Origin: Spirochaetia bacterium
GTDB taxonomy: Bacteria; Spirochaetota; Spirochaetia; SZUA-6; Bin103
Reading direction: 5' to 3'
Assembly: GCA_965198005.1 (NCBI GenBank)
Contig: CBDAOI010000004.1
Location: 2,016,001-2,080,000 of the forward strand
DNA length: 64,000 nucleotides
Below are positions 6,541 through 61,486 of this stretch, in pieces; within the stretch, counting starts at the first letter, position 1; the number at the start of each line of letters is the position of its first letter. The notes under the pieces are model-generated. The model ran no database searches. It was given only the letters and a program-made list of their open reading frames with translations, and had not been told where the DNA came from. Both the position numbers and the translations under genes were made by a program.

Positions 6541-6544
6541 GTCA

Positions 6545-6926: not shown

Positions 6927-6929
6927 CGC

Positions 6930-8072: not shown

Positions 8073-8107
8073 GTAAAGGGAAACATTAACTAAGGAGGCA
8101 GAGAAGG

Positions 8108-35730: not shown

Positions 35731-35841
35731 TCCAGCCAGCCGCCGTTTCCAAACCGTGCCAAGCAGGGTTGCCAGCGCGTGCCAGCCTGTGATGCTGGTG
35801 TCCGCCAGCGGCGAACGCCAGCGGTGCCGGCTGTCGCGGTT

Positions 35842-36610
35842 TAGTCGTGGAGTTCATCGGCAACGATGTTGGTGGAGTCGATGATGCTGATGTCGTTGGC
35901 GACGGCGTGCAGGATGGAGCGATAGCAGACGGCGTTGACCAAGCGCGGCACACCACCGGCGTGGCGGTGAATGTCAGCTTTGGCATCATCGGCGAAGATC
36001 GAGGCAGGGCGGCCACAGCGGACGGTGTGGTGGTCGATGTAGCGACAGGTCTCCTCCAGAGAGCCATGGCCGGCATGTGATAGGAGATACGGATGCGCTG
36101 GCGCAAGGAAGCGAAGGAAACATATCTGAGCAACTCGCGCAGCTCGGGTTGGCCGGCGAGGACGAAGGTGATGGAGTTTTTGGTGTCGAAGGCGAAGTTG
36201 ACCATGTTCTTGATGGCCGTCAGGGCGGTGGCCGCAAGGTCCTGAGCATCGTCGAGGATGACTAGTGGTTTCTTGGTCAGCTCGGGGATGGTCTTGAAGA
36301 ACAGCTGCTTGGCCTGGCCGGCGAAGAACGGCGGATCGATCTTCAACTCATCGAGGATTGCCTTGTAGAGCTGGGCTTCCGAGAGGCCGGCGCCGCGGAC
36401 GTAGAGGGGGCGGTAGCGGTTGCCGTCGAGTTCGCTGACGAAGGCGGCGAGGGCGACCGACTTGCCGCAACCGATGGGGCCGGTGAGGAGCAGGAGATCC
36501 TCGTCGGCGACGCCGAAGGAGAGGCGGGAGAGCGCCTCCTGATGGGCGGTGGAGGGGAACGTGTCGGCGGGCTGGAACGGTGCTTGCCGAGGACGTGATC
36601 ATGCATCTGC
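35842..36610 (-). pseudogene. ExeA/AAA_22 transposition ATPase, frameshifted
   Basis: LLTGPIGCGKS, VILDDAQ, FVLAGQPEL, LRQRI split across frames. Confidence 0.8.
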
Positions 36611-37675
36611 ATCGTGGTGCTCCTTGGGGGTAGTGCGGAACTGGCTGAACGAAGTCTGGTTACGGTCGCGAAGCCGGGCGTGGTGCTGCTCGCGCAGGCG
36701 GGTGAAGTAGTCCCGGGCGGCGGCCGACACCTCAGGCGGCTTGGCGCGGGACTCCTCGGGGACCGCCGGCACCTGTGTGGTGACCTGTTTGGAGGCGCTG
36801 GTGGTCTCCAGCAGGCCGCCGCCGGGGTCGTAGATGGCAAGCTGGGCGAGGTCGTAGGGGTCGAAGCGGACCTCGACGACGCTGCCATGGGGGACGCTGG
36901 TGACGGGGTATTGGTTGCCGTGCAGCTTGATCCTGCCATACTTGGTGACGGTGCGCCGTTCGCGCCACAGGAACAGGGCGTTGAAGGTCTCCAGATCGGT
37001 GATCCGGCGGTGGTCGGCGGGCAGCCCGTCGCGGAAACGAGCATCGGGACTCTGGCCGGTGGCTGAGTGGACGCGAACGTTGTATTCGAGATCCATCCAG
37101 GCCCAGAAGGCGGAGTTCAGTTCATCGAGGGTACGCATCCCGGCGACTTGGGCCTCGCGTTGGAACTGGTTCTTGATGATCTTGTTGGCGGCCTCGACCT
37201 TGCCCTTGCAATAACTGCGCGAGTCTTCAGCGAGCATGCGGTAGCGGACCGCCTGGGTGAGGCCCTGCTCGGCCAGGAAGCGGTAGATGGTGCGATCTGA
37301 GATGCGTTTGATCTTGCTGCCCAACTGATCGTCGGTGGCGAGCAGCTTGCGCAGTTGGGGGACGCTCCTGGTGGGCAGCTCGTTGACCAGCGCGAGGAGC
37401 TTGGCGCGCAGCCCAGGATCGTGGACGCGCGGCGAGGTGGGCCGCGGCCGGTAGAACAGCAGCCCCCGGGGGCCCTTCTTGCGATAGCGGTGGAGGTAGC
37501 CTCTGATGGTGCGCTCCCCAACCCGATGCTGCTCGCAGTAGCGCCGGCGTTCCGCGCGTTTGTCGGCGTTCCCGATGTGCGGGTCGAGCAGCATCTCGAC
37601 CAAGCGCAGGCGTTCGTCAAATGCCTCCATGGCCGCGTCCGGGATCTGCTCCCAAGGGAAGTCGCCGAGGCTCAT
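36599..37675 (-). mobile_element. DDE integrase/transposase with Mu-like C-terminus, core deleted
   Basis: HTH N-terminus; KGKVE, YNVRVHSATGQSP, RTVTKYGRI, VRFDPYDL; first catalytic Asp region absent. Confidence 0.8.
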
Positions 37676-38304
37676 TCGAGGTCCTCGCGCTCGCCGACGA
37701 CGGCCCGCCGGCACAGCCAATCGCGGTACTCGCTGGTGAGCTCGTCGAGGGACAGGCGCGGCTGCTCAGCGTACAGCTCACGCAGGCGCTCGACCTCCTC
37801 GGCGAGCTTCTGCAGCAGCACCTCGCCGGCTACCTCCAGGTGGTGTGAATCGAGCGGCTGCCACGGCTCGGGAGTGAGGAACAACTCCAGCACCCAGTCA
37901 CAGAGAAACTGCAACCGGTCGCCGATCAGCTGCAGCAGCTGGGAGAGTTCATCGAACCCGCCCAGCACGCACTGGGGAGCATCGATGAGCTGGCTCAGAA
38001 TGTTCTCCCGCACCAGCGCCGCCTGGCGGCTGAAGATCGACCCCCGAGTGTGGTCGGCGTGCAGCAACGCCGTCGCATCGCTGCTGCGGTAGCCAGCCAG
38101 GGCACGCCACAGATCGCGCTCATCGGCGCTCCTGCGCCGGCAATGCTCCAGCAACCAGTCGCGGCGGCGTGGCGGTGGCGTCGGTTCGGTCAAGATCCGA
38201 TGAAAGAGCAGCAGCAGCTCTTCCAGCTGCGCCAAACGGTCGGGGGAAACCAGTAGTTGATCCACTTTGATGCCTCCTGTGGGTGGATGCTTAAGTGGTA
38301 TCAA
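37672..38304 (-). CDS. Hypothetical protein within the transposon operon
   Basis: 210-aa ORF overlapping both neighbours. Confidence 0.55.
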   Translation of the reverse strand: MIPLKHPPTGGIKVDQLLVSPDRLAQLEELLLLFHRILTEPTPPPRRRDWLLEHCRRRSADERDLWRALAGYRSSDATALLHADHTRGSIFSRQAALVRENILSQLIDAPQCVLGGFDELSQLLQLIGDRLQFLCDWVLELFLTPEPWQPLDSHHLEVAGEVLLQKLAEEVERLRELYAEQPRLSLDELTSEYRDWLCRRAVVGEREDLE

Positions 38305-38950: not shown

Positions 38951-39322
38951 AGGATGATCCAGCTTTTAGGTGGGGGTCACCGTTGTACCCGGAGTAAGTA
39001 CTGGCGGTGGCCCCTATCTTTTTTCGTGATCTCCGGAACGCTTCCCGGACGAACCTATCCTACCCCCACTGGCGGATTTGTCCACATCTCGGAAATCTCA
39101 CCTGGCGGGCAACACGCCTTGAAGGCATCGCGCGTTTCGAACACGCGAGCGTGGATCGCTGCCGGGTCGTGACCGCGGCGCCAAGGCTCTGACACTAGAA
39201 GCCTATCCCAGCCTACCACTACCACCGCCGCGTTGCCCGGCAGACTGACGCCCCGTCACCCGCGAATCAGCGACGCCGCCACGCGGCGTCCGCACTCAGC
39301 GTCGGTCTGCTATCATCACCGA

Positions 39323-42300
39323 GTGAAGCTGGAAGACCTGCAGGCCACCGCCACCGTGCGCGGCATCCTGGCCGATGCCGCGGTGAGCGTCGTCAGCGTG
39401 CGCTGGTTCGGGTCGCAGGCGCTGGAGCTGACCTACCGCACGGCGGGTGGCGAGCTGGGCAGCGAGATCCTCTACCGCGATGACGAAGCCCGGCTGGAGA
39501 TCGCCGAGCAGGGGCGCCCGTGGAGCTTCGATGGGGACGGGGAGCTGTTTCGGCTGGTGTCCGAGGCGCTGCGGATTCGCCTCGCGCACCTGTTCGATCC
39601 GGCGTTGGCGGTGCACACGTCGCTGGTGGAGCCGCTTCCCCACCAGATCACCGCGGTCTACGAGGCGATGCTGCCGCGCCAGCCGCTGCGCTTTCTGCTG
39701 GCCGACGATCCCGGCGCCGGTAAGACGATCATGGCCGGCCTGCTCATGAAGGAGCTGATTGCGCGCGGCGACCTGCAGCGCTGCCTGGTGGTGTGCCCCG
39801 GCAGCCTGGCGGAGCAGTGGCAGGATGAGCTGTACCGCCGTTTCCATCTGAACTTCGAGATCTTCACCAACGACAAGCTGGCCGCCGCCCGCACCGGCAA
39901 CTGGTTCCTGGAAGCCGACCTGGTGATCGCCCGCCTGGACAAGCTCGCGCGCGACGCCGAGCTGCAGGACAAGCTCCAGGCGCCCGACTGTCGCTGGGAC
40001 CTGATCGTCTGCGACGAGGCGCACAAGATGGCGGCCACCTTCACCGGCGGTGAGGTCAAGTACACCAAGCGCTACCGCCTGGGCCAACTGCTCGGACGCC
40101 TGACGCGCCACTTCCTGCTGCTCACCGCCACCCCGCACAACGGCAAGGAGGAGGACTTCCAACTGTTCATGGCGCTGCTGGACGGCGACCGCTTCGAGGG
40201 ACGGTTCCGCGACGGCGTCCACGTGGTGGATGTCTCCGACCTGATGCGGCGCATGGTGAAGGAGCGCCTGCTCAAGTTCGACGGCACGCCGCTGTTCCCC
40301 GAGCGCGTGGCCCACACCATCCCCTATCAACTCTCCACCGTAGAGGCGCACCTGTATCGGGCGGTCACCAGCTACGTGCGCGAGGAGTTCAACCGCGCTG
40401 AGGCGCTGGACAACAACAAGCGGGCGGGTACGGTGGGATTCGCCCTGACGCTGCTGCAGCGCCGCCTCGCCTCGTCACCGGAGGCGATTTACCAGTCGCT
40501 ACGGCGGCGGCGGCAGCGGCTGGAGAGTCGCCTGCGCGAGCTGGAACTGTTGCGTCGTGGTGATCAGGCGGCGGCTCGTGTCGCGCTGCCGCCCGGCGTC
40601 GAGTTGGACCCGGATGACATCGACGATCTGGAAGACGCGCCCGCCGGCGAGTGGGAGGAGACGGCCCAGCAGATCCTCGACCAGGCGACTGCGGCGCGCT
40701 CCAGTGCCGAGCTGAGAGCCGAGATCCGGACCCTGCGCCACGTCGAGCAGGTGGCGCTCGGCGTGCGGCGCAGCGGCAACGATGCCAAGTGGCGCGAGCT
40801 CGCGGGGCTCCTGGGCGAGATTTTCTCGCGTCGCGCCACGGGGCAGGCGGCGGCACCCGGGCACGGCCGCAAGCTGGTGATCTTCACCGAACACCGCGAC
40901 ACCCTCGACTATCTGCGCGGCCGTATCGCCACGGTACAGGGACGTGACCAAGCGGTGGTGGTGATCCACGGCGGCATGGGCCGCGAGGAGCGGATGAAAG
41001 CGCAGGAGGCGTTCCTGCACAACCGCGACGTGCAGATCCTGCTGGCTACCGACGCGGCGGGCGAGGGGATCAACCTGCAGCGCGCCCATCTGATGGTGAA
41101 CTACGACCTGCCGTGGAACCCGAACCGGCTCGAACAGCGTTTCGGCCGCATCCACCGCATCGGTCAAACCGAGGTGTGTCACCTGTGGAACCTGGTGGCG
41201 GATGAGACCCGCGAAGGCGATGTCTACCGGCGGCTGCTGGACAAGCTGGAGCAGGCGCGCCAGACCCTCGGCGGCCAGGTGTTCGACGTACTCGGCAAGC
41301 TGCAGTTCGGCGGCCGGCCGCTGCGCGACCTGCTGCTGGAGGCGATCCGTTATGGCGAGCAGCCGTCGGTCCGCGCGCGGCTCACCACTGCCCTGGAGCA
41401 CGCCCTCGACCGCGCCGCGCTACGGGACCTGCTGGAGGACCAAGCCCTGGCACCGGACGCCATGGACGCCACCCGCGTGCAGCGGGTGCGGGAGGAGCTG
41501 GAGCGCGCCGCGGCCCGGCGGCTGCAACCTCACTACGTCGAGTCGTTCTTCCGTGCGGCGTTTGCGCGCCTGGGCGGCTCGATTGGCCGGCGCGAGCCGC
41601 GCCGCTACGAGATCACCCACGTGCCCGGCGCGGTGCGCAATCGCGACCGGCTGATCGGTGTCGGCGAGCCGGTGTCGGCCCGCTATGAGCGCATCGCCTT
41701 CGACAAGGCTCTGGTGTCCCTGCCCGGCAAGCCGCAGGCAGCGTTCGTGTGCCCGGGCCACCCGCTGCTCGACGCGGTGCTCGACCTGACGCTGGAACGC
41801 CAGCGCGATCTGCTGAAACGGGGCACCGTGCTGGTCGACGAGGGTGACACGAGGTCTGCCCCGCGCGTGTTGTTCTACCTCGAACACGCCATCCAGGACG
41901 CGAGCCGGACGCGCACCGGCGAGCGGCGCGTGGTATCGAAACGCCTGCTCTATGTCGAGCTGGCGGAGTCCGGCGCGCCGTGCCACCTGCACTATGCGCC
42001 CTACCTCGACTATCGGCCGCTGACTCCCGAGGAACCGGCGGTTGCGGCAGTCATGGAGCGGCCCGAGTGTGCCTGGATCACCGGCGACCTGGAGCAGCGC
42101 GCCCTTGAACACGCCGTGACCGACGTCGTCCCCGAACACCTCGACGAAGTCCGCAACGCCAAGCTGGGACTCATCGCCAAGACCGAGGCCGCGGTAAAGG
42201 AGCGGCTCACCAAGGAGATCGCGTATTGGGATCATCGTGCCGCGCAGCTCCAGCTCCAGGAGCAGGCGGGTCGCACCGGCGCCCGGCTGGTCTCCGGCGA

Positions 42301-42862
42301 GGCGCGCCGCCGCGCCGACGAGCTGCAGGCACGGCTCCAGCAGCGGCTGCGGGCACTGAAGCTGGAGGCCCAACTCGCCCCGCTGCCGCCGGTCGTGCTG
42401 GGCGGGGTGCTGGTGATGCCGGCGGGTTTGATCGCGGCCATGGGCGGCCGGAAGACTGAGCCTTCGTCCCGCACCACGGCAGACACCCAGGAGGCCGCCG
42501 CTCGGGCGCGCGCCATCGTCATGGACACCGAGCGTGCCCTCGGCTTCGAACCCACCGACCGCGAATTCGAGCGCCTCGGCTACGACCTCGAGAGCCGCGT
42601 CCCCGGCACCGGCAAGCTGCGCTTCATCGAGGTCAAGGGCCGCATCCACGGCGCCGCCACCATCACCGTGACCCGCAACGAGGTTCTCTACTCGCTCAAC
42701 CAGCCCGACGACTACCGCCTCGCCATCGTCGAGTTCCTGGACGGCGACACCCACCGCGTCCACTACGTCCGCGCACCGTTCCGCCGCGAGCCGGACTTCG
42801 GCGTCACCAGCATCAACTACTCCTTCACCGACCTCCTCGCCCGCGCCGAGGCCCCATGCTGA
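39323..42862 (+). CDS. SNF2-family helicase with C-terminal DUF3883 nuclease-like domain
   Basis: LADDPGAGKT, DEAH, TATPH, ATDAAGEGINLQ, LEQRFGRIHRIG, GYDLES...FIEVKG; extended -10 TGcTATCAT just before GTG. Confidence 0.95.
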   Translation: MKLEDLQATATVRGILADAAVSVVSVRWFGSQALELTYRTAGGELGSEILYRDDEARLEIAEQGRPWSFDGDGELFRLVSEALRIRLAHLFDPALAVHTSLVEPLPHQITAVYEAMLPRQPLRFLLADDPGAGKTIMAGLLMKELIARGDLQRCLVVCPGSLAEQWQDELYRRFHLNFEIFTNDKLAAARTGNWFLEADLVIARLDKLARDAELQDKLQAPDCRWDLIVCDEAHKMAATFTGGEVKYTKRYRLGQLLGRLTRHFLLLTATPHNGKEEDFQLFMALLDGDRFEGRFRDGVHVVDVSDLMRRMVKERLLKFDGTPLFPERVAHTIPYQLSTVEAHLYRAVTSYVREEFNRAEALDNNKRAGTVGFALTLLQRRLASSPEAIYQSLRRRRQRLESRLRELELLRRGDQAAARVALPPGVELDPDDIDDLEDAPAGEWEETAQQILDQATAARSSAELRAEIRTLRHVEQVALGVRRSGNDAKWRELAGLLGEIFSRRATGQAAAPGHGRKLVIFTEHRDTLDYLRGRIATVQGRDQAVVVIHGGMGREERMKAQEAFLHNRDVQILLATDAAGEGINLQRAHLMVNYDLPWNPNRLEQRFGRIHRIGQTEVCHLWNLVADETREGDVYRRLLDKLEQARQTLGGQVFDVLGKLQFGGRPLRDLLLEAIRYGEQPSVRARLTTALEHALDRAALRDLLEDQALAPDAMDATRVQRVREELERAAARRLQPHYVESFFRAAFARLGGSIGRREPRRYEITHVPGAVRNRDRLIGVGEPVSARYERIAFDKALVSLPGKPQAAFVCPGHPLLDAVLDLTLERQRDLLKRGTVLVDEGDTRSAPRVLFYLEHAIQDASRTRTGERRVVSKRLLYVELAESGAPCHLHYAPYLDYRPLTPEEPAVAAVMERPECAWITGDLEQRALEHAVTDVVPEHLDEVRNAKLGLIAKTEAAVKERLTKEIAYWDHRAAQLQLQEQAGRTGARLVSGEARRRADELQARLQQRLRALKLEAQLAPLPPVVLGGVLVMPAGLIAAMGGRKTEPSSRTTADTQEAAARARAIVMDTERALGFEPTDREFERLGYDLESRVPGTGKLRFIEVKGRIHGAATITVTRNEVLYSLNQPDDYRLAIVEFLDGDTHRVHYVRAPFRREPDFGVTSINYSFTDLLARAEAPC

Positions 42863-43139
42863 CGCCCCCGTGCCCAGGGTACCCGTGCATGTGGCAGACA
42901 GGCGGTCAAGTAAGGCGTCGATCTGCTCGTCGAAAGATAGGTAACTCTATATTGCAGAGCCAATTAAAGTACAATAGATGGTGTCAAGTTCGGTGTCCTG
43001 CAACGCGCCAAGTTCCGAGATCGTTCCCGGTTGCGAGGCTGCCAACGGCGGGGCGACCACCGCGCACATCAGACGCCGCGCCACTTTGCCTTGACGGTGG
43101 GTGGCAATATACTCGAATACCTTCGAGGATGTGGAGCCG

Positions 43140-43370
43140 ATGAACGATAACGCGCGAGGAACGATCACGTACCTCGACGACGAAGAGCGTGATCTCATCA
43201 AGTGGATCGAAAACGAGGAGTGGGTTCCCGTAACTGATGTCGAAACAGTTAAAGAGCGGGCTCGTCGGCATGCGATCGCGACTATGCAGCAAGACAAGAG
43301 ACTCAACTCCGTGGGACTTGGTCCTAACCTGCCAACAGCACCAGTGTCACTCGATGGCCTCGATCGTTGA
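43140..43370 (+). pseudogene. CopG-like antitoxin remnant
   Basis: YLDDEERDLIKWIENEEW...QDKRLN resembles 6630-6926; C-terminus lost; RIPSR toxin trace upstream. Confidence 0.6.
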
Positions 43371-43439
43371 CATGGTTGACTCAAATTGTGGCGGCGTGAA
43401 ATGGTACAGACGATCCGGATCGCCGGCCAAGTGTGCAGC

Positions 43440-44477
43440 ATGACGACACCACAGCCCTCAGACAACCCTTGGATGCGCTCAACCTCGTTCGCCACGATGC
43501 TGCGCATACTGCACATAGCAGCTGCCTCACCGCATGGCCTGACGTCGAGAGAGATCGACTCGAAGCTACTGGAAACGTTACCCGCTGCCCGACGAAGCAT
43601 GCCTCCGGCAAGAACGACACTCTATCACCATCGTAACACGTTGCTCAAGCTTCAGGCACTGCAGCGACATGGATCCACAATACAACCTAACCGCAGCCAT
43701 CCAGCAGTGCAGAGACTACTGGGCCAGCACATTCTGGAAGATGGAGGACTTCACGAGACCGCTCAAGATCAGTTTGCAGATCTGGTGCTGAATAGCCCGG
43801 GGTGCCGGGAGCTGTTCTTTGATCTGTTTCTACCTCGTGGAGATAGCGAGTGCTTATCGGTGCGCGATTTTCGCTACTCTGGACTCCCGGTAATCTGGGT
43901 TAGGCAGGATTATGGCGGCACTGCCTCTGTGCTTCTGAGGAATGATGTAACGGGTCGCACTCTTCTTTGTGAATCGGAAGTGGCCATCAAGGCTGTACTC
44001 TACGGGTTGCGGTACTGGGCGCGAGATGAGCTCGCGCTCGTCGACGAGTACTCTCGGGTCGACGGAACCACCATTATGTTTCCGATCACTAGGGTTAGGT
44101 CGGTACGCTCAATGGTCCATCTGATACTCTCCCTCCGTCACCAAGCTGACGAGTGGACCCTATTCTCCGTGGTGGAACTGATCGAGAGATGCTGCGTGCG
44201 TAGACGCCACCCGATTGGGACCCTCTTCGAGGCTCTCAGGTGGCTTTCGAACGAATGGCATAGCCACGTTACGCTTATTCCGACCACATTCGCTCTTGCC
44301 ACGCTCGCCGCCCGATCTCCGGGAAGAGAGCAGCTTGAACTCCGACGATACTTTCGGAGAACTGATACCGACGCCTATGTGTCCCATGTACGAATCCACC
44401 GCGACATTCCGCTTGATCCGGAACAGGTGAAACATCCACATGTCTACGATACCGCCGCAGCTCCGGCTCACGTTTAA
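43440..44477 (+). CDS. Hypothetical protein, probable winged-HTH domains
   Basis: PHGLTSREID...RTTLYHHRNTLLKLQAL; overlaps the ATPase gene. Confidence 0.7.
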   Translation: MTTPQPSDNPWMRSTSFATMLRILHIAAASPHGLTSREIDSKLLETLPAARRSMPPARTTLYHHRNTLLKLQALQRHGSTIQPNRSHPAVQRLLGQHILEDGGLHETAQDQFADLVLNSPGCRELFFDLFLPRGDSECLSVRDFRYSGLPVIWVRQDYGGTASVLLRNDVTGRTLLCESEVAIKAVLYGLRYWARDELALVDEYSRVDGTTIMFPITRVRSVRSMVHLILSLRHQADEWTLFSVVELIERCCVRRRHPIGTLFEALRWLSNEWHSHVTLIPTTFALATLAARSPGREQLELRRYFRRTDTDAYVSHVRIHRDIPLDPEQVKHPHVYDTAAAPAHV

Positions 44478-45621
44478 CCCGTTCGAGCCGGTTGCGTCCG
44501 GCGCACCGCACGGCAGCGACCTGGCTCCTCCGTTCGGCATTGCAGATGAGGTCCACACGTTGCTCGGCGGGTACCAGTCGGCGCGTGGGGCCAAGGGTGC
44601 GACGATAGTAGGAGAGTATGGGACTGGAAAGACCTGCCTGCTGCATTGGCTGCAGCAGCAAGAGCTTCCGAAGAATCGCATCGTGCCGTTCTATTTTGAT
44701 AACCCAGGCGTACAGTTCTATGATCTTGCGAACGAGTTGCTGCGTCAGATAGGTCGGAAGGACTTTGCTAAGTTCGTGTGGGAACTCGCCAGTCCACATG
44801 TTGGAGATCATCAGCTTGATCTTTTCGAGCGCGGCTTCGAGGCATATGTTCGGGCGTCTCCCCAGCGCAAGCAACGCGCGGACATAACCGCCCAGCTACA
44901 GCAAGCGATCGCGCGGACGGAAGTAACATCTGACGATGAGATAGCATATTGTCTTGCTCGCCTCGTTACCGAGACGGTGAGCAAACCGTACTTCGAATAC
45001 CGTGATTTTGTACCGGCTAACGCCGCCAGCATCGTTGCCGAGCGCGAGGAAGCACGCTACTTCCGTGCGATACTGAAGACGATATCGTCCGGATTGAAAG
45101 CGACTGGTATAGCCTTCTTGATCGATGAGTTCGAGGAAATTGGACTACAGAAAAGGCTCGGCAGACGCGCGGCACATGATTACCTCGCAACGGTTAAGCG
45201 GTTGCTGAATATCGCTGCAGGAGGCGAACCAGCTTTCTGGCTTTTTTTGTCGATGACACCGGAGGCTCATGACACCAGTCGGGAGCTTGAGCCGGCGCTT
45301 TTCGAGCGACTTCAGGCAGGTCTGGAACTGCGGCCGCTGACTGGAAAGGCTGCGTTGGACCTCATGAGGAACAGGATACGCTCAGCTCGAGCGGGGGAGC
45401 GGGAGCACGGCAAGAGTCAGCTGTTCCCGTTCCCAGAGCGCGTTGACTTTCTCCGACCGACTACTTATTCGAACCCGCGCAGGTTGGTCAAGACCTGCTC
45501 GTTCGCGATCGCCGACTCGACTGCGAATACCGCGGTTCCGTTCACCGCTGAATATCTTCAGGCCGTAGAGACGAAACTGTATCCTACCGATTCTCCGAGC
45601 GTAGGGAATTCTGCATCGTGA
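44440..45621 (+). CDS. P-loop (AAA+/STAND-like) ATPase
   Basis: GEYGTGKT, FLIDEFEE, ALFERL, NPRRLV. Confidence 0.85.
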   Translation: MSTIPPQLRLTFNPFEPVASGAPHGSDLAPPFGIADEVHTLLGGYQSARGAKGATIVGEYGTGKTCLLHWLQQQELPKNRIVPFYFDNPGVQFYDLANELLRQIGRKDFAKFVWELASPHVGDHQLDLFERGFEAYVRASPQRKQRADITAQLQQAIARTEVTSDDEIAYCLARLVTETVSKPYFEYRDFVPANAASIVAEREEARYFRAILKTISSGLKATGIAFLIDEFEEIGLQKRLGRRAAHDYLATVKRLLNIAAGGEPAFWLFLSMTPEAHDTSRELEPALFERLQAGLELRPLTGKAALDLMRNRIRSARAGEREHGKSQLFPFPERVDFLRPTTYSNPRRLVKTCSFAIADSTANTAVPFTAEYLQAVETKLYPTDSPSVGNSAS

Positions 45622-46370
45622 GTCATGCTTCTTACCACTACAAGAAAGTGGCATTTCTGGACACGAACACAATTCACTACGTGCGACTCTGTTTGAGCTA
45701 CGCACAAGAGCGTGTCCTGCACCCGTTCGGTCCGGCATCGACAAGTAGCTGGGACGACCTTAATCCGAGCATCCGCACGTTGTCCAGAGGCCTTCGACAG
45801 CATCTTAAGATTGGAATCAAGGTCCTCCAGTTCCTCGAACACAGAGGTGTGGACGTCAAATACTCCCGGATCTCAGAGATCGAATTAATTGCCGGCATGA
45901 TTCGTGGCAAAGCAATTGAGAGCGCTGCTCGCGACGAGGTCCCGCACCGCATGCTGACCAGGATGCCGGAATCCGAAATCGCCGACCGAGTGAGCGAACA
46001 GGATCTGAGTCAGGTAGGCGCTGCCCTTGATGAACTCCCGTCGCTACTGGACGCGTTGAATATTACGATCACTGCGACGGACAGAAATAGGGAATCTGAT
46101 GTACTGGGACTCGCAGCGAGGATCGCCCGGTTGCGCTATCTCGAACCGGTGGATGTCGTCATCTACGCCGAGGCGGTGCTAGCTCAGGCCGACTACTTGA
46201 TTACCAGCGATGGCTATCTGCGTACGGTCACGAATGACATTCGAAACACCAAAAGGGCTCCGTTCGGCAATATCCGTACCCAGGTGATCCAAATCGCAGC
46301 AGATGCCCTACTCCAGGAACCCGGTAGTGTGATCCTGCCGGATGCACCAAAGAAGCTCGTTAGGAGCTGA
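45618..46370 (+). CDS. PIN-domain protein (250 aa)
   Basis: AFLDTNTI, SEIEL, DVVIYAEA, DYLITSD. Confidence 0.75.
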   Translation: MSHASYHYKKVAFLDTNTIHYVRLCLSYAQERVLHPFGPASTSSWDDLNPSIRTLSRGLRQHLKIGIKVLQFLEHRGVDVKYSRISEIELIAGMIRGKAIESAARDEVPHRMLTRMPESEIADRVSEQDLSQVGAALDELPSLLDALNITITATDRNRESDVLGLAARIARLRYLEPVDVVIYAEAVLAQADYLITSDGYLRTVTNDIRNTKRAPFGNIRTQVIQIAADALLQEPGSVILPDAPKKLVRS

Positions 46371-47601
46371 TCTCGACTTCAGCGTGGCATATCATGTCGT
46401 CGAATACCCGGCAGCGAGGCGTTGGGTAACACCTCAGACAGCCCGCGCACAACCGGTCCACCGATGGTACCTGTTCCCGCATAGTTTCACCGGCGATCTC
46501 GTGCACGCTCTCGTCGATGAATGGGGTCTGAGTAACCACGATCGGATTCTCGACCCGTTCGTTGGCGCAGGGACGACATTGGTCAGTGCCAGGGAGCGTA
46601 ACGTGTCAGCGTTTGGCTATGACATATCGCCACTTGCGGTTCTGATTGCTAACACCAAGACATCGAGATATTCCGAGGAGCGCCTCGCCACGTGCTGGCG
46701 CTCTCTCTTGGCATCTCAAGGCCTATTCGACGATAGGGTCTCCGTAGATGTTGCTGATTTGGTTCGTCGGGCGCTTCCCGACGGACGACTGGAGGCGTTT
46801 CAGTCTCTCCACAATTGCATCATGGAACTTGACGGTGCTTCGCCCGAACGCGACTTCTTTCGGCTGGCGTTGCTTGCCATACTCCCTCAATTCAGTGCGA
46901 CTGCTGCAAATGGAGGGTGGCTGCGATGGAGGGTGGCCGGTCTTCCTGCCGAGCAGGTCGTCCATGCGTTTGCCGAACGGGTAAGGATGATGCTGGCTGA
47001 AGTCGAGCATTACCGGCGACCAGTGACGGGCACTTGGAGCGCAGCCCTCGCCGATGCCCGCGACCTGCCGGATGCGGAGGCCACCTACTCGGCAGTCATC
47101 ACCTCGCCACCGTATCCTAACCGACACGACTACACTCGGGTCTTCGGTGTAGAGCTGATGTTCGCGTTCCTGAGCTCGGAGGAAACGCGACAACTTCGCC
47201 ATCGTAGTTTCCATTCTCATCCGGAAGCCCGTCCAAGTCGTGGTAATGCACCGGAGTACGACTCTCCACGGCGTCTGGAAAGGGACTTGCACCTGTTTGG
47301 CGACGCTCGGATCCAACGGATGCTGCGCGGGTATTTCCTGGATATGTATCTGTGCTTGCGCGAGATAAGGCGAGTATGTCGCGTCGGCGCCAGAATTGCC
47401 TTGGTAGTCGGCAACGTACGGTATAGAGGCCACCCGATCATGGTAGATGAGCTGACCGCTGAGGTTGGTGAGCAGGCCGGATTGAGCTGTCGTGAGATCC
47501 GTGTGGCACGATGGCGGGGGAACAGCGCGCAGCAGATGGGCCGGTTTGGCCGCACGGCATCGCGCGAGAGCCTGGTTGTGTTTGAGAACGACGGGGCGTA
47601 A
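46342..47601 (+). CDS. DNA amino-methyltransferase (alpha order, probably m4C)
   Basis: HRWYLFPHSF, ILDPFVGAGTT (motif I), VITSPPY (motif IV). Confidence 0.88.
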   Translation: MHQRSSLGADLDFSVAYHVVEYPAARRWVTPQTARAQPVHRWYLFPHSFTGDLVHALVDEWGLSNHDRILDPFVGAGTTLVSARERNVSAFGYDISPLAVLIANTKTSRYSEERLATCWRSLLASQGLFDDRVSVDVADLVRRALPDGRLEAFQSLHNCIMELDGASPERDFFRLALLAILPQFSATAANGGWLRWRVAGLPAEQVVHAFAERVRMMLAEVEHYRRPVTGTWSAALADARDLPDAEATYSAVITSPPYPNRHDYTRVFGVELMFAFLSSEETRQLRHRSFHSHPEARPSRGNAPEYDSPRRLERDLHLFGDARIQRMLRGYFLDMYLCLREIRRVCRVGARIALVVGNVRYRGHPIMVDELTAEVGEQAGLSCREIRVARWRGNSAQQMGRFGRTASRESLVVFENDGA

Positions 47602-47928
47602 CAAAGCGAAGCGGCTCTCGATGTCGTAGCCGAGGCGCTCGACTTGCGGGCGGTGGGCTCGAAGCCCGGGCTGCCTTCCATAGTCCTCTCGGTGCACGAG
47701 TCCGTTGCCGCGCTCTGGCCGGCGTCAGGCCGCAGCGGGGTGCAACGCGTGCGGCGCTCCGCGCCCGACCGCCGCAGCAGGGGGAGGGGCGAACGCATGT
47801 GCCATAGCCGCTGTGGGCCATTGCTCACCTGCGCGTTGCCATGCTCGTCGCAACACCCCCGTACGCCGGTCGTCTGTCACGCCACGTCGGTCGACTGGCT
47901 GCTCGGTGTGGCCAGGCCATTATATTAG

Positions 47929-47985: not shown

Positions 47986-49080
47986 ATGGTTGGGAGAAGG
48001 CTCAAACTCGCTCGCGCGGCTACTGGGCTGTCCCTGCGCGGGCTGGAACGGCGAATCGGCGGCCGCGTGACGGCCCAGGCGATAGGAAAATATGAGCGCG
48101 ATGAATCGATGCCGAGTTCCGGGGTTCTCATTGCGTTGGTGGAAGCGCTGGGCGTATCCGTCGAGTACCTGGTGAGTGAGCAGCACCTTGTACTCGAAAC
48201 GGTCGAGTTCAGGAAGAAGACGATCTCGCGCAAACGCGACGAGGCGCGAGTGCAAGCCCGGGTGGTGGACATGATGGAGCGCTATCTTACCGTTGAGCAG
48301 GTACTTGCTCTACCGAGCGTCGCTTGGGCAAGGCCCCGTGAGGCGCCCTATCCCGTGGTCGGCGACCTGACGGGTGCCGAGCGAGCAGCCCGCAGCCTGC
48401 GCCGACACTGGGATCTTGGACGAAAACCGATCGCAAGCATGGTTGAGTTGCTGGAGGAGTCCGGTATCAAGGTTCTGGCATCCGAGCTCACCGACATTGC
48501 GGGCCTGACCGCGTACGCGCGTTTGGGTGATAGACAGGTCGAACCGTTTATCGTGCTAAACGGACAGCACTCGGGAGAGCGGCAACGTTTCACGCTGGCC
48601 CACGAACTCGGACACTTGGTGCTCGCCGTGGATGCCGACATCAATGCGGAGAAGGCGGCTCATCGCTTCGCAGCCGCCTTCCTCATGCCGCCCGACGCCC
48701 TGCGGATGGAGATCGGCGCCCGCCGCACCTCCATTGGATGGAGCGAGCTGCTCAGCCTGAAGCGCGTGTTCGGGGTCAGCGTGCAGGCACTCGTGTATCG
48801 CTGCCGCGACCTCGCCATCATCAGCGAGGCGTTGTACCGGCGCCTGTTTCGAGAAATGTCGCGGCTTGGCTGGAGAACCCCACCCTACACCGAGCCGCAC
48901 CCGATCCCAGTGGAGGAGCCCACCCGGTTCGTGCGGCTATGCCTGCGCGCCATGGCCGAGAACGTCATCTCCGAGCGCAAGGCCGCCGAGTTGCTTGATA
49001 TGTCGGTCCACGATTTGAACCGTAGTATCGCGACGCCCCCTGAGGTAGTGGACGCCGTCCGAGCAATGGTAGGGACTTGA
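47986..49080 (+). CDS. XRE HTH + ImmA/IrrE metallopeptidase
   Basis: GRRLKLAR...AIGKYE; RQRFTLAHELGH; EKAAHRFAAAFLMP. Confidence 0.92.
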   Translation: MVGRRLKLARAATGLSLRGLERRIGGRVTAQAIGKYERDESMPSSGVLIALVEALGVSVEYLVSEQHLVLETVEFRKKTISRKRDEARVQARVVDMMERYLTVEQVLALPSVAWARPREAPYPVVGDLTGAERAARSLRRHWDLGRKPIASMVELLEESGIKVLASELTDIAGLTAYARLGDRQVEPFIVLNGQHSGERQRFTLAHELGHLVLAVDADINAEKAAHRFAAAFLMPPDALRMEIGARRTSIGWSELLSLKRVFGVSVQALVYRCRDLAIISEALYRRLFREMSRLGWRTPPYTEPHPIPVEEPTRFVRLCLRAMAENVISERKAAELLDMSVHDLNRSIATPPEVVDAVRAMVGT

Positions 49081-49147: not shown

Positions 49148-50704
49148 ATGAAACAGAGCAAAGACAGTATCAGTCAACAAGCAATAGAATGGTCGATACT
49201 GCACCTTCAAAAGCACGGCGACACGGATATTTTTCCAAAGCCATTTGAGTACACAGCAGTGGGAGATCAGGCCATCCGTGAACATGTAGCGAAAGTTGAT
49301 CTCGCATGTTACAAGACGAGAGATGCGCGGATGATTCTCGTGCCGAAAGCGGGATATGGGTTTCGTGTGAGCCATCAGCTCGATCCTATCGACTCAATCG
49401 TCTACACGGCATCAGTATATGAGATCAGCAAAGATATTGAGCGTTGGAGAGTACCAGTCGACGAGCGTATTGCATGTTCCTATCGGATACAACCTACGGA
49501 CGATGGTGATTTCTTCCCGCGTGATAACGGATGGTCAAGCTACTACGAGCAGTCCTCCATGCTCGCCAATATTCATCGATACGTTCTGCACATCGACGTT
49601 GCCGCATTCTATAACCAGATCTATCATCACCGACTTCAAGGAGCGCTTGACGAAGCTGGAATATCTCTAGAACGGTCGAAGAACATTGAACGATTCCTAG
49701 GTAGTTTAACGGCAAGACAGTCTCAGGGTATACCGATCGGTCCTGCAGCGTCTCATGTTCTCGCGGAAGCATGCTTGAACGACGTGGACCGATCTCTGAA
49801 GGATAAGGGATACAACTTCACGCGCTATGTCGATAATATCCGGATGTTTTTTAGCGATCGACGGACATCCTGGAATGCGCTGCATCATGTTACTCAGTAT
49901 CTCTACACGGCTCACCGGTTATCCATTCAGGACTCGAAGACACAATTCGAGGCAGCGACGGAGTTCAAGTCGGAACGATTGGAAGATCCGCAATTCCGGG
50001 AAGATCAACAGAAGGAGCGAGCACTAGACGATCTCATTAGCGAGATGCGGGAGGCGAGCGGATACGAGGACATCGGGATTCACGATCTGGGAGAAGATGC
50101 TGACAAGGAGTTGCGCAGGGTCTTGGAGGAGCTGTTTCGCGAGGCGATTGATCATACACCGGTGAAGTTTGGCATGATACGACACGTGCTGCGCAGAGCG
50201 AAGTCGATGCGATCGCGTGTGCTGCATCCTGGAGTGCTTGAGAAACTCGAGAGCCTCATTCCCGTTTTTCGTGACGTTTGTCTCTATCTTATGCACACCT
50301 TGCCCACCGATCAATGTCGGGCACGCGAAGTGGGTGACAGGCTACTCGAGATCGCGTGCCGGTCGGATTGGTCCTGTGCATTTGTTCAGCTCTGGGTGCT
50401 TCACGTACTACAGGAGAAGCCGCGTGCGGCGAGGTATGAGGATGCTGTCAAACTTGCTCGTTCAGCGGAGAGCGAGTTGGGAATCAGGCCGATGGCGCTG
50501 CTCGCGCGGGCCTTCAAGAAGACCCACTGGGTACGTGGCAAAAAGGAGACCGTGATGGCTTTGTCGCCATGGGATCGACGAGCGGTAATCTACGCGGGAC
50601 AGATTCTCCCTGCCAAGGAGAAGAAGATCTGGTTGAATATGATCAAGGAGAAGGGAGATCATTTGGATATAGCGGTGGCTAACTGCCTGCTGTCTTCGAG
50701 CTAG
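49148..50704 (+). CDS. Reverse transcriptase, UG/Abi (DRT-like) type with helical C-terminal domain
   Basis: VPK..GFR..QLDPID, IDVAAFYNQIYHH, GIPIGPAASHVLAE, RYVDNI, SKT. Confidence 0.88.
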   Translation: MKQSKDSISQQAIEWSILHLQKHGDTDIFPKPFEYTAVGDQAIREHVAKVDLACYKTRDARMILVPKAGYGFRVSHQLDPIDSIVYTASVYEISKDIERWRVPVDERIACSYRIQPTDDGDFFPRDNGWSSYYEQSSMLANIHRYVLHIDVAAFYNQIYHHRLQGALDEAGISLERSKNIERFLGSLTARQSQGIPIGPAASHVLAEACLNDVDRSLKDKGYNFTRYVDNIRMFFSDRRTSWNALHHVTQYLYTAHRLSIQDSKTQFEAATEFKSERLEDPQFREDQQKERALDDLISEMREASGYEDIGIHDLGEDADKELRRVLEELFREAIDHTPVKFGMIRHVLRRAKSMRSRVLHPGVLEKLESLIPVFRDVCLYLMHTLPTDQCRAREVGDRLLEIACRSDWSCAFVQLWVLHVLQEKPRAARYEDAVKLARSAESELGIRPMALLARAFKKTHWVRGKKETVMALSPWDRRAVIYAGQILPAKEKKIWLNMIKEKGDHLDIAVANCLLSSS

Positions 50705-50793: not shown

Positions 50794-53687
<2,894 letters not shown>

Positions 53688-53691
<4 letters not shown>

Positions 53692-56393: not shown

Positions 56394-56400
56394 GCCACCG

Positions 56401-58186: not shown

Positions 58187-61100
58187 ATGGCAGTAACCAA
58201 TCACGAACGAGTAGGCAAGGGACTGGAGCTTCTGCGCAGCGGGCTGGGGCCGTTCGTTGAGCGCGAGCTGAAGCGGGCGGTGCAGGCACGCGAGCTGGAC
58301 GACTACCGCCTGCGCGAGATAGCGGGTGACCCCTCGTTGCGGCGCGGCTCCGCGGAGTGGGACGTGGCCATGCTCCTGAAGCTGATGTGGGAGATGTGGA
58401 ACGAGGTGTTTCGCACGATTCTCGGACGCTCCGACCGCAGTCTGGTCAGCGAGTTGCGCGAGCATCGCAACAAGTGGGCACACCAGGAGCTGTTCTCGAG
58501 TGACGACGCCTACCGCGTCCTGGACTCGGCGCAGCGCCTGCTGACCTCGGTGTCGGCGCCGCAGGTGCAGGAGATCGACACCCTCAAGCAGGAGCTGCTG
58601 CGGGTGCGGTACCAGGAGCAGGTGCGTGGCGAGCAGCGCAAGAAGGGCAGGACCACCGTCGCCGATGGGGCGGTTGCCGGGCTTAAGCCGTGGCGGGAGG
58701 TGGTGACCCCGCACCAGGACGTCGCCAGCGGCCGCTATCAGCAGGCTGAGTTCGCCGCCGATTTGTGGCAGATCTACCTTGGTCAGGGTACCGCCGAGTA
58801 TCGCGATCCCGTGGAGTTCTTCCGCCGAACCTATCTCACCGACAGCCTGCGGGCAATGCTGACCGGCGCCGTGCAGCGGCTGGCTGGGCTGGGCAGTGAC
58901 CCGGTGGTCCAACTGCAGACCAACTTCGGCGGCGGCAAGACCCACTCGATGCTGGCCTTGTATCACCTGTTCTCAGGGACGCCCCCGACGAGCCTGGCCG
59001 GAATCGACGGAGTGTTGAAGGCAGCAGATGCCGGCGAGCTGCCTGCGGTGCGGCGCGTCGTGTTGGTCGGTAACCGAATCTCTCCCGGCAACCCGGTAAC
59101 CAAAGACGACGGCACCGTCGTGCGCACCCTCTGGGGGGAGCTGGCGTGGCAGCTCGGTGGCAAGGAGGCGTTCGCCCGGCTGGCGGCCGACGATGAAAAC
59201 GCCACCAGTCCCGGCGACCGCCTGCGCGAGTTGCTCATCGAGCACGGACCCTGCCTGATCCTGATCGACGAGTGGGTGGCCTACGCCCGGCAGCTCCACG
59301 ATCAGAGCGATCTGCCGGCGGGCAGTTTCGAGACCCAGTTCACCTTTGCGCAGGCGCTGACCGAGTCGGCCAAGCTGGCCGGCAACTGTCTGTTGGTAAT
59401 AAGCTTGCCCGCCTCGGACGCCGATGAGTCGCCGCATACCCAGGCGGACGACGCGGAAGTGGGCGGCCAGCGCGGACGGGAGGCGCTCGACCGCCTGCGC
59501 AACGTTATCGGCCGCATCGAATCCTCGTGGCGACCGGCCACGGCGGAGGAGAGCTTCGAGATCGTGCGCCGGCGCCTGTTCCAGCCGTTCAACGATCCGG
59601 CGCAATTCACGGCGCGAGATGTGGTAGCACGCGGGTTCTCCGAGCTCTACGGTGCACAGCAGCAGGAGTTTCCCCGCGAGTGTCGGGAAGGCGACTACGA
59701 GAAGCGGATCAAGGCCGCCTATCCAATCCACCCCGAGGTGTTCAATCGGCTGTACACCGACTGGTCGGCGCTGGCGAAGTTTCAGCGTACCCGCGGCGTG
59801 CTGCGGCTCATGGCGGCGGTCATTCACAGCCTGTGGGAGAAGGGAGATAGCAGCCCGCTCATCCTGCCGGCCAGCGTGGCGATTGACGATGTGCGGGTGC
59901 AGTCCGAGTTGACCCGCTACCTCGACGACAACTGGACGCCGATCATCGAGAAGGATGTAGACGGCGCGGGCTCCCTGCCGATGCGGATCGACGCCGAGCA
60001 ACCCAACCTGGGCAAGTTCGCGGCGGCGCGCCGCGTCGCACGGGCGATCTTTCTCGGATCCGCACCGACGACCGCGGCCGCCCACCGTGGCATCGACGAC
60101 CGGCGCGTAAAGCTGGGCTGCGTCATGCCGGGCGAGACACCGGCGGTGTTCGGGGATGCCCTCCGGCGCCTGGCCACGGTTGCCACCTATCTGTACGAGG
60201 ACAGCGCCCGCTATTGGTACGACACGCAGCCCACGGTCACCAAGTTGGCCGAGGATCGCGCCGAGCAACTGCTGCGTAGTCGCGACCGCGTTGCGCACGA
60301 GATCGCCACACATACCCGCGCCAAACTGCGCGAAGCCGGCGATTTCAGCCGCGTGCACCCCTTTCCCCAATCGGGCCAGGATGTTCCCGACGATCTCGAC
60401 ACCCGTCTCGTCGTTCTGGATCCGGAACACCCCTACACCAGAGGTGGAGTGAGCCCGGCGGAGACCCAGGCGCAGGCAATCTTCGAATCCCGCGGCAACG
60501 CCCCGCGCATCTATCGCAACACCCTGGTGTTCCTCGCCGCCGACGCCACGCGGCTGCAGGAGCTGGACCAGGCGGTGCGCCGACTCCTCGCCTGGGAATC
60601 GATCGTCGGCGAGAAAGAGCAGCTCAATCTCGCCCCTCACCAGGTGCGGCAAGCCGACACGCAGCGCGAGGCAGCCGCTACCGAGATGGTTTCGCGTATT
60701 CCGGAGACCTACCGCTGGCTGCTGGTGCCGGGACAAGCCACGCCACAGTCCGAAGTGACCTGGGATGCCTTGAACCTGACCGGGTCGGATTCACTGGCCG
60801 TGCGTGCGGCCAACAAGCTCAAGAGTCAGGAGGGGTTGGTAACCGGTTACGCCGCCTCGCTCCTGCGGATGGAGTTGGACCGCGTCCCGCTGTGGCGGCA
60901 GAATCACGTGTCGGTTGCCCAACTGGTCGAGGATTTTGCCCGCTACCTCTACCTGCCACGGCTGCGCGACCCGCAGGTGCTGCTGGGCAGCATCACCGAT
61001 GGGGTGTCCTCGATGACCTGGGAACAGGACGGCTTCGCCTTCGCCGACAGCTACGATGAGGCGAAAGGCCGCTACCCGAACCTGCGCACCTCACAACAGA

Positions 61101-61486
61101 TCATGCTCCCGGACGCCCACTCTCCAGGACTGCTCGTCAAGCCCGAGGTGGCACGGCAGCAGCTCGACGAGGAAGTGCCTCTGCCCCCGGGACCTGATCC
61201 ACGCCCGGGACCCGACCCGCCCCCACCGCCGCCTCCATCACCAAAGCCGACGCTGAAGCGCTACCACGGCTCCGTAACCCTCGACACCGCCCGCGTCGGG
61301 CTCTCGGCCAGTCAGATTGCCGAGGAAGTGATCGCCCACCTCAACGGCCTTCCGGGAGCGCAGGTCACGGTGACGCTGGACATCCAGGCCGACATCCCCG
61401 AGGGCGCGCCGGATCACGTCGTGCGCACGGTTACCGAGAACAGCCGCACGCTCAGGTTCACAGATCTGGGATTCGAGCCGGAGTAG
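58187..61486 (+). CDS. Swt1-HEPN + DUF499 ATPase
   Basis: RNKWAH, PWREVVTPH, EFAADL, TNFGGGKTH, LIDEW, YPIHPE. Confidence 0.95.
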   Translation: MAVTNHERVGKGLELLRSGLGPFVERELKRAVQARELDDYRLREIAGDPSLRRGSAEWDVAMLLKLMWEMWNEVFRTILGRSDRSLVSELREHRNKWAHQELFSSDDAYRVLDSAQRLLTSVSAPQVQEIDTLKQELLRVRYQEQVRGEQRKKGRTTVADGAVAGLKPWREVVTPHQDVASGRYQQAEFAADLWQIYLGQGTAEYRDPVEFFRRTYLTDSLRAMLTGAVQRLAGLGSDPVVQLQTNFGGGKTHSMLALYHLFSGTPPTSLAGIDGVLKAADAGELPAVRRVVLVGNRISPGNPVTKDDGTVVRTLWGELAWQLGGKEAFARLAADDENATSPGDRLRELLIEHGPCLILIDEWVAYARQLHDQSDLPAGSFETQFTFAQALTESAKLAGNCLLVISLPASDADESPHTQADDAEVGGQRGREALDRLRNVIGRIESSWRPATAEESFEIVRRRLFQPFNDPAQFTARDVVARGFSELYGAQQQEFPRECREGDYEKRIKAAYPIHPEVFNRLYTDWSALAKFQRTRGVLRLMAAVIHSLWEKGDSSPLILPASVAIDDVRVQSELTRYLDDNWTPIIEKDVDGAGSLPMRIDAEQPNLGKFAAARRVARAIFLGSAPTTAAAHRGIDDRRVKLGCVMPGETPAVFGDALRRLATVATYLYEDSARYWYDTQPTVTKLAEDRAEQLLRSRDRVAHEIATHTRAKLREAGDFSRVHPFPQSGQDVPDDLDTRLVVLDPEHPYTRGGVSPAETQAQAIFESRGNAPRIYRNTLVFLAADATRLQELDQAVRRLLAWESIVGEKEQLNLAPHQVRQADTQREAAATEMVSRIPETYRWLLVPGQATPQSEVTWDALNLTGSDSLAVRAANKLKSQEGLVTGYAASLLRMELDRVPLWRQNHVSVAQLVEDFARYLYLPRLRDPQVLLGSITDGVSSMTWEQDGFAFADSYDEAKGRYPNLRTSQQIMLPDAHSPGLLVKPEVARQQLDEEVPLPPGPDPRPGPDPPPPPPPSPKPTLKRYHGSVTLDTARVGLSASQIAEEVIAHLNGLPGAQVTVTLDIQADIPEGAPDHVVRTVTENSRTLRFTDLGFEPE

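Follow-up and report, generated by a model that had tools for sequence, protein, structure and literature searches.

The window analysed here is a stretch of 64,000 nucleotides from the genome of a Spirochaetia bacterium (assembly GCA_965198005.1, contig CBDAOI010000004.1, positions 2,016,001 to 2,080,000 of the forward strand). At positions 43440–47601, the list of open reading frames (ORFs) and their translations show four overlapping genes on the + strand, which we termed A, B, C and D (Table 1). They encode a protein with an N-terminal winged helix, a P-loop ATPase, a PIN-fold protein and a predicted methylase of the SPPY type. A first-pass annotation, made from the letters of the window, had given the same four domain calls and had taken the genes for a candidate undescribed defence system. 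Its description of the locus is borne out. Every motif that it had listed is present in the translations (GEYGTGKT and DEFEE, the acidic set of a PIN domain, DPFVGAGTT and TSPPY), and the low guanine-plus-cytosine (GC) content is confirmed: 0.54–0.59 over positions 43500–47499, lower than in the flanks, compared with 0.66–0.71 in the upstream SNF2 helicase gene. Consecutive ORFs overlap by 38 nt (A/B), 4 nt (B/C) and 29 nt (C/D), which fits a translationally coupled operon. In our view, this cassette most likely represents a restriction-like system, so far undescribed, that defends against phages and plasmids. Four other explanations, all ranked below this one, are weighed together with the evidence that bears on them.

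The four genes as a unit

To define the cassette, loci were collected by a scan with B alone, using one genome per species, and the presence of each gene in the resulting 61 loci was scored by tblastn with all four proteins at a coverage of at least 60%. The colinear order A-B-C-D was found in 41 loci, B-C-D-A and D-A-B-C in one each, A-B-C in four, B-C in four and B only in six; the arrangements A-B, A-D and A only, and the absence of all four genes, account for one locus each. One of the loci scored as B-C (L053) was corrected to D-A-B-C: it contains a divergent A (hhalign 100%, expectation value (E) 4.6e-49) and D matches in two frames. After this correction, all four genes are present in 44 of the 61 loci (41 A-B-C-D, one B-C-D-A and two D-A-B-C). 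The occurrence of three gene orders indicates that co-occurrence survives reordering. This association, on which the first-pass annotation had made its proposal depend, is far beyond chance, and the four genes are a real unit.

Contig ends interrupt five of the remaining loci (L001, L049, L050, L055 and L060). Apart from four loci with partial sets that are considered with the model below, the other incomplete loci appear decayed, with B alone or interrupted genes. Three loci from Latescibacterota (L016, L019 and L021) have a lone B directly after hsdR-ygjP, accompanied by a remnant of A of 40–50 residues and by neither C nor D; they are probably decayed cassettes. The lone-B stretches of L019 and L021 lie at about 7700–9200, and in L019 a DDE transposase follows.

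The inheritance of the four genes was analyzed with 41 gene sets, comprising the window and those 40 of the 42 callable loci that passed the length filters. When the pairwise distances within each of the four genes were compared as matrices, the correlations had r of 0.86–0.95, and the observed value was reached in 0 of 500 permutations. Because related sequences share history, the correlation shows co-inheritance and does not prove co-evolution.

These loci come from roughly ten phyla of bacteria and from several lineages of archaea. Going by the titles of the records, the bacterial hosts include Latescibacterota, Nitrospira, Gammaproteobacteria, Acidobacteriota, Spirochaetia, Planctomycetota, Chloroflexota and Longimicrobiales, and the archaeal hosts include Heimdallarchaeota, Methanophagales and Thermoplasmata. 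Within the order to which the window belongs, a strong B match is present in five of 41 genomes, the window's own included, and the other four matches show 48–62% identity. This patchy distribution is best explained by horizontal transfer. No match was found among 50,697 phage records, the patterns applied to the viral contigs of IMG/VR picked up no relative of B, and plasmids yielded only distant haloarchaeal homologues of B (21–24% identity).

Properties of the four proteins

The N-terminus of A, residues about 13–103, is a winged helix, and the ~230 further residues match no family. No family was found for A in Pfam, PADLOC v2.0.0, NCBIfam or PHROGs, none of 29 aligned members has a Pfam match at E < 0.01, and no sequence relative was found in the PDB. 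The A family comprises 184 clusters at E ≤ 0.001 in 5.8 billion proteins, and each of the 120 listed among them lacks both a name and a Pfam domain; it also has 248 representatives among 1.84 billion sequences, all unnamed. The AlphaFold2 model of A has a predicted local distance difference test score (pLDDT) of 91.5. Its sole multi-domain structural match is the recognition domain of FokI, which is non-catalytic; the cleavage domain of FokI is not aligned. In the ESM Atlas, DpdG (0.84) and the FokI recognition domain (0.83) were obtained, both below 0.9 and leads only. The top whole-chain Foldseek row is SspB (6juf_A), a weak match (E 0.022, TM 0.27), and SspB does not appear in the top 50 VIA rows of the structural comparison. 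A profile search pointed to a PC4-like middle domain (phage T5 p15, 4bg7, E 0.031), which we did not adopt because the YGxRYW segment that it matched is helical in the AlphaFold2 model. Given its modelled structure, A is a putative DNA-reading protein.

Could A instead be an endonuclease? In an ordinary Type II restriction-modification (R-M) system, A would be a novel endonuclease paired with D, and B and C would be unrelated ATPase-PIN passengers. Type II endonucleases are very diverse, and the lack of a family for A and its FokI-like recognition architecture are what such a pair might present. The alignment of A tells against it: the invariant polar residues are R65, in the recognition helix TTLYHYRNTL, C122, R191, E203 and H316, and no PD-(D/E)xK, HNH or GIY-YIG pattern is apparent among them. 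Moreover, A is found fused to B and was never seen fused to D, the four genes are co-inherited, and A-B-C is found without D. Taking these points together, we regard the Type II pair as very improbable. The first-pass annotation had seen no recognisable restriction endonuclease among the four genes, and the library and fold searches agree; they found no known restriction endonuclease family or fold for A, although residues 104–345 were not searched as a separate model. Its reservation that the first ORF might prove to be a known Type II enzyme found no support in these searches: A has no family and no PDB sequence relative, and the FokI match is to the recognition domain.

Gene B carries the Walker A motif GEYGTGKT and the Walker B motif FLIDEFEE, and residues G58, G61, G63, K64, D229 and E230 are invariant across 34 B sequences. 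It matches Pfam AAA_22 (E 9.4e-10) and scores 23 bits on PF10923, BrxC_BrxD, a margin of 0.8 bit over the cut-off of 22.2. The nearest ESM Atlas clusters are BrxC_BrxD/DUF2791/KAP, with a score of 0.98. In PADLOC, B matches BrxD alone, at E 0.0012; on the NCBIfam model BREX_BrxD it reaches 16 bits against a cut-off of 350, indicating that B is not BrxD proper. Judged by sequence, B is a member of the BrxC/BrxD (DUF2791) ATPase family. A single fused A-B ORF occurs in L008 (731 aa) and in L012 (739 aa), and an unrelated database protein, P0352 (712 aa), shows the same fusion.

The distant B homologues mentioned above are found on nine haloarchaeal plasmids (hhalign 98.7%, E 2.3e-16, 355 columns). 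We inspected five of these plasmid regions, L068–L072 (NZ_CP100464.1, NZ_CP045489.1, NZ_CP095485.1, NZ_CP084465.1 and NZ_CP106970.1), and in all five the operon consists of a large TGT, a TGT, a 298-aa protein and then the ATPase. A nuclease is annotated beside the operon in two of the five: an HNH nuclease after the ATPase (H1) and a 'restriction endonuclease' upstream (H7). The operon looks like an archaeal 7-deazaguanine DNA-modification or restriction module that uses the ATPase family of B. Its surroundings include genes for queuosine precursors, Csa3 and, in some cases, HNH or restriction genes. Homology of the 298-aa partner to A was not supported, with an hhalign probability of 16% for the single sequence and 10% for a five-sequence profile.

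These operons raise the question whether the cassette serves modification more than defence. A and B could load D onto DNA, comparable to the ATPases of BREX and Dpd, with C as a toxin that stabilises the cassette through post-segregational killing and defence secondary or absent. Consistent with this idea, the TGT operon is conserved in all five regions and has a nuclease beside only two, B belongs to the BrxC/BrxD family, and PIN domains are classic toxins. However, homology of the 298-aa partner to A is not supported, and the D family is about ten times the size of the A family, indicating that this type of methylase does not generally need A and B. In addition, A-B-C persists without D in L008 and L028, and no antitoxin-like gene is conserved in the cassette. 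A modification or addiction module is thus unlikely.

Gene C has a PIN fold, with Foldseek probabilities of 0.99–1.0 to VapC/PIN chains. Its AlphaFold2 model (pLDDT 93.1) includes long helical insertions. The sequence contains FLDTN, and four acidic residues, D15, E89, D179 and D198, are invariant across 31 homologues. No Pfam match, PIN models included, was found at E 0.01, and no PADLOC v2.0.0 family at E ≤ 0.01. Based on the modelled fold, C is the putative effector nuclease of the cassette. It shares with VapC of the VapBC systems the PIN fold and the four acidic residues, but it is about 250 aa long with long helical insertions and is always linked to the ATPase B. A VapB-type antitoxin gene is absent: the conserved neighbours of C are only B and D.

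The resemblance of C to VapC leads to a different outcome of the same recognition event. If C were a VapC-like RNase, detection of unmodified DNA by A and B would trigger cleavage of tRNA, rRNA or mRNA and arrest the infected cell, leaving the invader uncut. A precedent is HEC-03, in which an ATPase gene is followed by a VapC-like PIN gene and which is embedded in Hma systems; the accessible part of the preprint reports it as an experimentally confirmed defence (bioRxiv 10.1101/2024.01.29.577857). RNase 'backup' effectors (HEPN, PIN and Schlafen) are also described as common around BREX and Hma in the accessible text of a second source (PMC12839542). The parallel with HEC-03 is incomplete. HEC-03 has an ABC ATPase and neither a methylase nor a winged-helix partner, whereas B is of the AAA_22/BrxC_BrxD type; the PADLOC HEC-03 model matches neither B nor C, and none of the HEC and PDC models of PADLOC v2.0.0 matches A, B or C. 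Furthermore, C is twice the size of VapC, with its long helical inserts, and a self-marking methylase is most simply explained by DNA-directed restriction. Abortive infection is the foremost of the alternatives to restriction, and we consider it somewhat unlikely.

Gene D contains motif I, DPFxGxGTT, at residues 71–79 (here DPFVGAGTT) and motif IV, TSPPY, at residues 254–258, in the order I then IV, and neither motif varies in any of 41 sequences. It matches Pfam N6_N4_Mtase (E 4.9e-07), PADLOC MTase_II PDLC03224 (E 2.1e-57) and PHROG 18146, 'DNA methyltransferase' (E 1.3e-33). Among the 25 best of its 31 PADLOC matches, of which MTase_II is the best, no PglX model is found. Sequence matches in the PDB are limited to short alignments over motif I to N4-cytosine methyltransferases (E 0.003). 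An SPPY motif IV favours N4-cytosine as the target. The family is large, with at least 1976 matches at E ≤ 1e-10 among 8000 candidates scored, compared with the 184 clusters of the A family. From these matches, D is predicted to be an S-adenosylmethionine-dependent DNA amino-methyltransferase.

Genomic surroundings of the cassette

In the window, the cassette sits within an Hma operon, between hmaA and hmaB, as identified by PADLOC models on the flanking genes. The first-pass annotation had placed the four genes correctly behind an SNF2 helicase, but it missed that this helicase is HmaA and that the cassette is embedded in an Hma system. HmaA, HmaB and HmaC, which together define Hma, are all encoded by the flanking genes and none by the cassette; the system is complete at 39233–61486. 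Both slots between the Hma genes are filled. The first contains the cassette and a second embedded module, formed by an RmrA-like gene and Drt8, and the second contains Ppl, a Schlafen-type AlbA_2/HATPase_c_4 gene and a 174-aa ORF.

Table 1. Genes of the cassette and of the surrounding Hma island, in window coordinates
Feature	Position	Strand	Length	Matches and remarks
hmaA, SNF2 helicase with C-terminal NOV_C	39233..42862	+		PADLOC HmaA PDLC00659, 1658.9 bits; Pfam SNF2-rel_dom, Helicase_C, NOV_C
Gene A	43440..44477	+	345 aa	ATG start; alternative TTG start at 43386 (363 aa)
Gene B	44440..45621	+	393 aa	
Gene C	45618..46370	+	250 aa	
Gene D	46342..47601	+	419 aa	
RmrA-like HTH/M78 peptidase gene	47986–49080	+		PADLOC RmrA E 7.8e-64; Pfam Peptidase_M78, HTH_3
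Drt8 reverse transcriptase gene	49148–50704	+		PADLOC Drt8 E 3.8e-136; Pfam RVT_1
hmaB, DUF1156 DNA methylase	50794..53691	+		PADLOC HmaB 1490.8 bits; Pfam DUF1156
Ppl (PHP + ABC ATPase)	53688–56393			PADLOC Ppl E 1.2e-111
Schlafen-type AlbA_2/HATPase_c_4 gene	56341–57618			between hmaB and hmaC
ORF	57641–58165		174 aa	between hmaB and hmaC; no Pfam or PADLOC family
hmaC, DUF499 ATPase with N-terminal HEPN_Swt1	58187..61486	+		PADLOC HmaC 1122.1 bits; Pfam HEPN_Swt1, DUF499
ORF	61491–62087		198 aa	flanks hmaC; no Pfam or PADLOC family

Genes embedded in this way are frequent in Hma systems. The accessible part of Payne et al. (bioRxiv 10.1101/2024.01.29.577857) gives embedded genes in 62.7% of 1,485 Hma systems and reports that seven of nine tested candidates protected against phage and that embedded systems function alone. 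Hma itself has been reclassified as a 'Type-1 BREX-related' system, according to the accessible text of Rakesh and Krishnan (PMC12839542).

Across the 61 loci, an Hma frame occurs in just three (L039, L046 and L047), and most loci are without Hma genes; a DUF499/HmaC-like gene lies nearby in eight further loci. In L039, the cassette is located between hmaA and hmaB, beside a GmrSD/HEC-06 gene. Six loci have the cassette nested in a Type I R-M operon, as hsdM-hsdS-[A-B-C-D]-hsdR-ygjP, and in L056 (Thermoplasmata, 96–8792) D-A-B-C lies between the mod and res genes of a Type III system. Including the window, the quartet is thus nested in an Hma, Type I or Type III operon in nine of the 45 places where it is complete. 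This nesting strengthens the reading of the cassette as a defence system. For the 44 complete cassettes, we also analyzed the closest upstream and downstream ORFs with a length of 150 aa or more, a crude test of 86 ORFs that include some shadow ORFs. PADLOC models are matched at E ≤ 1e-10 by 27 of the 86, in 25 of the 44 loci, and by none in the other 19. The models matched include Type I, IIG and III R-M, HmaC, PtuA, IetS/IetA, SoFic, HEC-01A, HEC-06 and several PDC candidates. In L008, L028 and L037 the cassette is flanked by housekeeping genes, and these copies count for its autonomy.

The same surveys bear on whether the cassette is autonomous at all or supplies Hma, Type I or Type III systems with an auxiliary or backup effector. 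Its nesting in nine of the 45 places, the DUF499 proteins near eight further loci, and the bare B-C pair that L046 and L047 carry in an Hma-like operon, with the helicase on one side and the methylase on the other, would all suit a dependent module, and the accessible text of PMC12839542 reads BREX- and Hma-embedded genes as auxiliary effectors. On the other hand, the host systems vary between Hma, Type I and Type III, 19 of the 44 loci have no PADLOC-positive immediate neighbour, and some copies stand between housekeeping genes. The cassette also has its own methylase, and embedded systems are reported to function alone in the accessible part of the preprint (bioRxiv 10.1101/2024.01.29.577857). 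We therefore find an accessory role distinctly unlikely.

Several further arrangements were observed. The Hma-like operon of L046 and L047 (4541–17170) comprises a helicase, B, C, a DUF2225 protein, an HmaB-like methylase and then an HmaC-like gene; no A-like domain was found in the helicase of L046. In L042 and L044 (9883–12824), an insertion made up of a NurA-like gene (410 aa) and a 570-aa gene separates C from D, forming a nested module within a nested module, and a Type IIG enzyme is encoded directly upstream.

In the window itself, GC content shifts between 0.49 and 0.71 from module to module of the Hma island, suggesting separate acquisitions. Just upstream of the island, on the - strand, lie pieces of a Mu-type transposase (Mu-transpos_C, HTH_32) together with an AAA_22 fragment (35537–37720), and a DDE_Tnp_1 transposase is found at 34487–35293. 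The spacer between hmaA and A (42863–43439, 577 nt) contains a 76-codon ORF at 43140–43370. This ORF was considered as an antitoxin and dropped, having no Pfam family and being conserved in none of the loci. A site scan gave four promoter-like sites, compared with 2.0 ± 1.4 expected, and seven terminator-like sites, compared with 3.8 ± 1.8 expected. A promoter-like site (9/12) at 43086–43113 and a hairpin at 47908–47920 bracket the cassette, at chance level, and a search for flanking repeats or attachment sites returned just short repeats, also at chance level.

A model for methylation-linked defence

We suggest the following model. D would methylate host DNA at a fixed motif, on an exocyclic amino group, with N4-cytosine suggested by the invariant TSPPY. 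A, with its winged helix, its likeness to the FokI recognition domain and no apparent nuclease motif, would read DNA and detect the unmodified motif on incoming DNA. B, which is translationally coupled and sometimes fused to A, would link this recognition to ATP binding or hydrolysis and to assembly. The cycle of B would then license C, through its intact four-acid PIN site, to cut nucleic acid. The copy in the window would have come to occupy the 'embedding' slot that separates hmaA from hmaB. Each functional step, that is, the action of D on DNA in vivo, the reading of methylation by A, the binding between A, B and C, and the substrate of C, is our interpretation of the domains and their conservation.

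Several observations weigh against this model. The closest structural neighbours of C are RNase toxins (VapC) and not DNases. The occurrence of the ATPase family of B in TGT operons, with a nuclease beside two of the five, would fit a role in modification rather than restriction. D weakly matches RNA methyltransferase models (UPF0020 and TIGR01177). Finally, L008 and L028, both flanked by housekeeping genes, keep A-B-C without D although room for it exists, and L046 and L047, with their Hma-like operon, keep B-C alone; D and A are thus not strictly obligatory. A methylase conserved alongside a nuclease, with A-B-C rarely lacking D, is what one would expect if the host depends on the methylase for protection against the nuclease arm. 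Weighing both sides, we think that the cassette is probably an autonomous, horizontally mobile defence that tells self from foreign DNA by methylation. For C, the structural neighbours point to RNA and the methylation logic favours DNA, which makes cleavage of invading DNA slightly likelier than collateral cleavage of RNA. A broader proposal, that such cassettes form a previously unrecognised restriction-like class with methylation reading (A), ATP licensing (B) and PIN cleavage (C) on separate polypeptides, is possible and rather doubtful. The reader and the BrxD-like ATPase may also be a portable targeting module that is plugged into methylase or TGT/7-deazaguanine chemistries and into PIN or HNH nucleases.

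Comparing the cassette with known systems shows partial likeness to several of them. As in BREX and Hma, a DNA methylase is combined with an ATPase of the ORC/Cdc6 type, here from the BrxC/BrxD family, and no classical restriction endonuclease is recognised. Unlike these systems, the cassette has no PglZ, no large BrxC/PglY/DUF499 ATPase, no PglX/DUF1156 methylase and no helicase, and its effector is a PIN protein. No Pfam or PADLOC match to PglZ was found in A–D or in the neighbouring ORFs scanned, and B, at 393 aa, is not the large ATPase of BREX, as it passes just the generic PF10923 threshold. An SspA-, SspC- or SspD-like gene was not found in the cassette with Pfam or PADLOC. With Type II and IIS R-M systems, for which FokI serves as the structural comparison, the cassette shares D, whose family PADLOC files as Type II. 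It differs from them in that the reader A has no recognised nuclease domain, the only nuclease recognised is a separate PIN protein, and an ATPase stands between the two, in some cases fused to the reader. McrBC similarly combines a DNA-binding, NTP-hydrolysing component with a separate nuclease subunit, but its target is modified DNA and it lacks a methylase; the searches made, none of which was aimed at McrBC, gave no match to McrB or McrC by sequence or by fold. No Ssp, Dnd, PglZ, BrxC or PglX protein was recognised in the cassette. The layout resembles a miniature BREX/Hma or ATP-dependent restriction system, and the cassette is a member of none of them.

The proposal of the first-pass annotation, a candidate undescribed defence, is therefore upheld in part. 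Support comes from conservation, from embedding in R-M and Hma operons and from the lack of an entry for it in the libraries searched, where A, B and C fit no PADLOC v2.0.0 model. The mechanism put forward there, with methylation marking self, the winged-helix protein and the ATPase as sensors and the PIN protein as an RNase effector, is a hypothesis. The likeness to BREX and Ssp that had been drawn is an analogy only, as no PglZ, BrxC, PglX or Ssp component was recognised. A full-text search of the literature, which did not cover the supplementary lists of embedded cassettes of bioRxiv 10.1101/2024.01.29.577857, found no description of the four-gene set. What is new here are two unnamed protein families, A and C, in a putative methylation-linked multi-gene defence; defence of that kind is already known. 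As the cassette is spread over many uncultured bacterial and archaeal phyla, catalogues that rely on genomes from culture do not show it.

Should the cassette prove to work as a defence, it would be a compact, four-gene, methylation-linked immune system containing two families that no curated library names and, if the proposed mechanism is true, the first restriction-type system with a PIN-fold effector. It would provide a tractable model for how an ORC/BrxD-type ATPase couples methylation-sensitive recognition to an effector, an open question for BREX-like systems, as reader, switch and nuclease are here small separate proteins. A sequence-reading protein with a separable nuclease is also of potential biotechnological interest. 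Finally, a working cassette would extend 'guilt by embedding' from Hma to the Type I and Type III R-M operons of environmental lineages.

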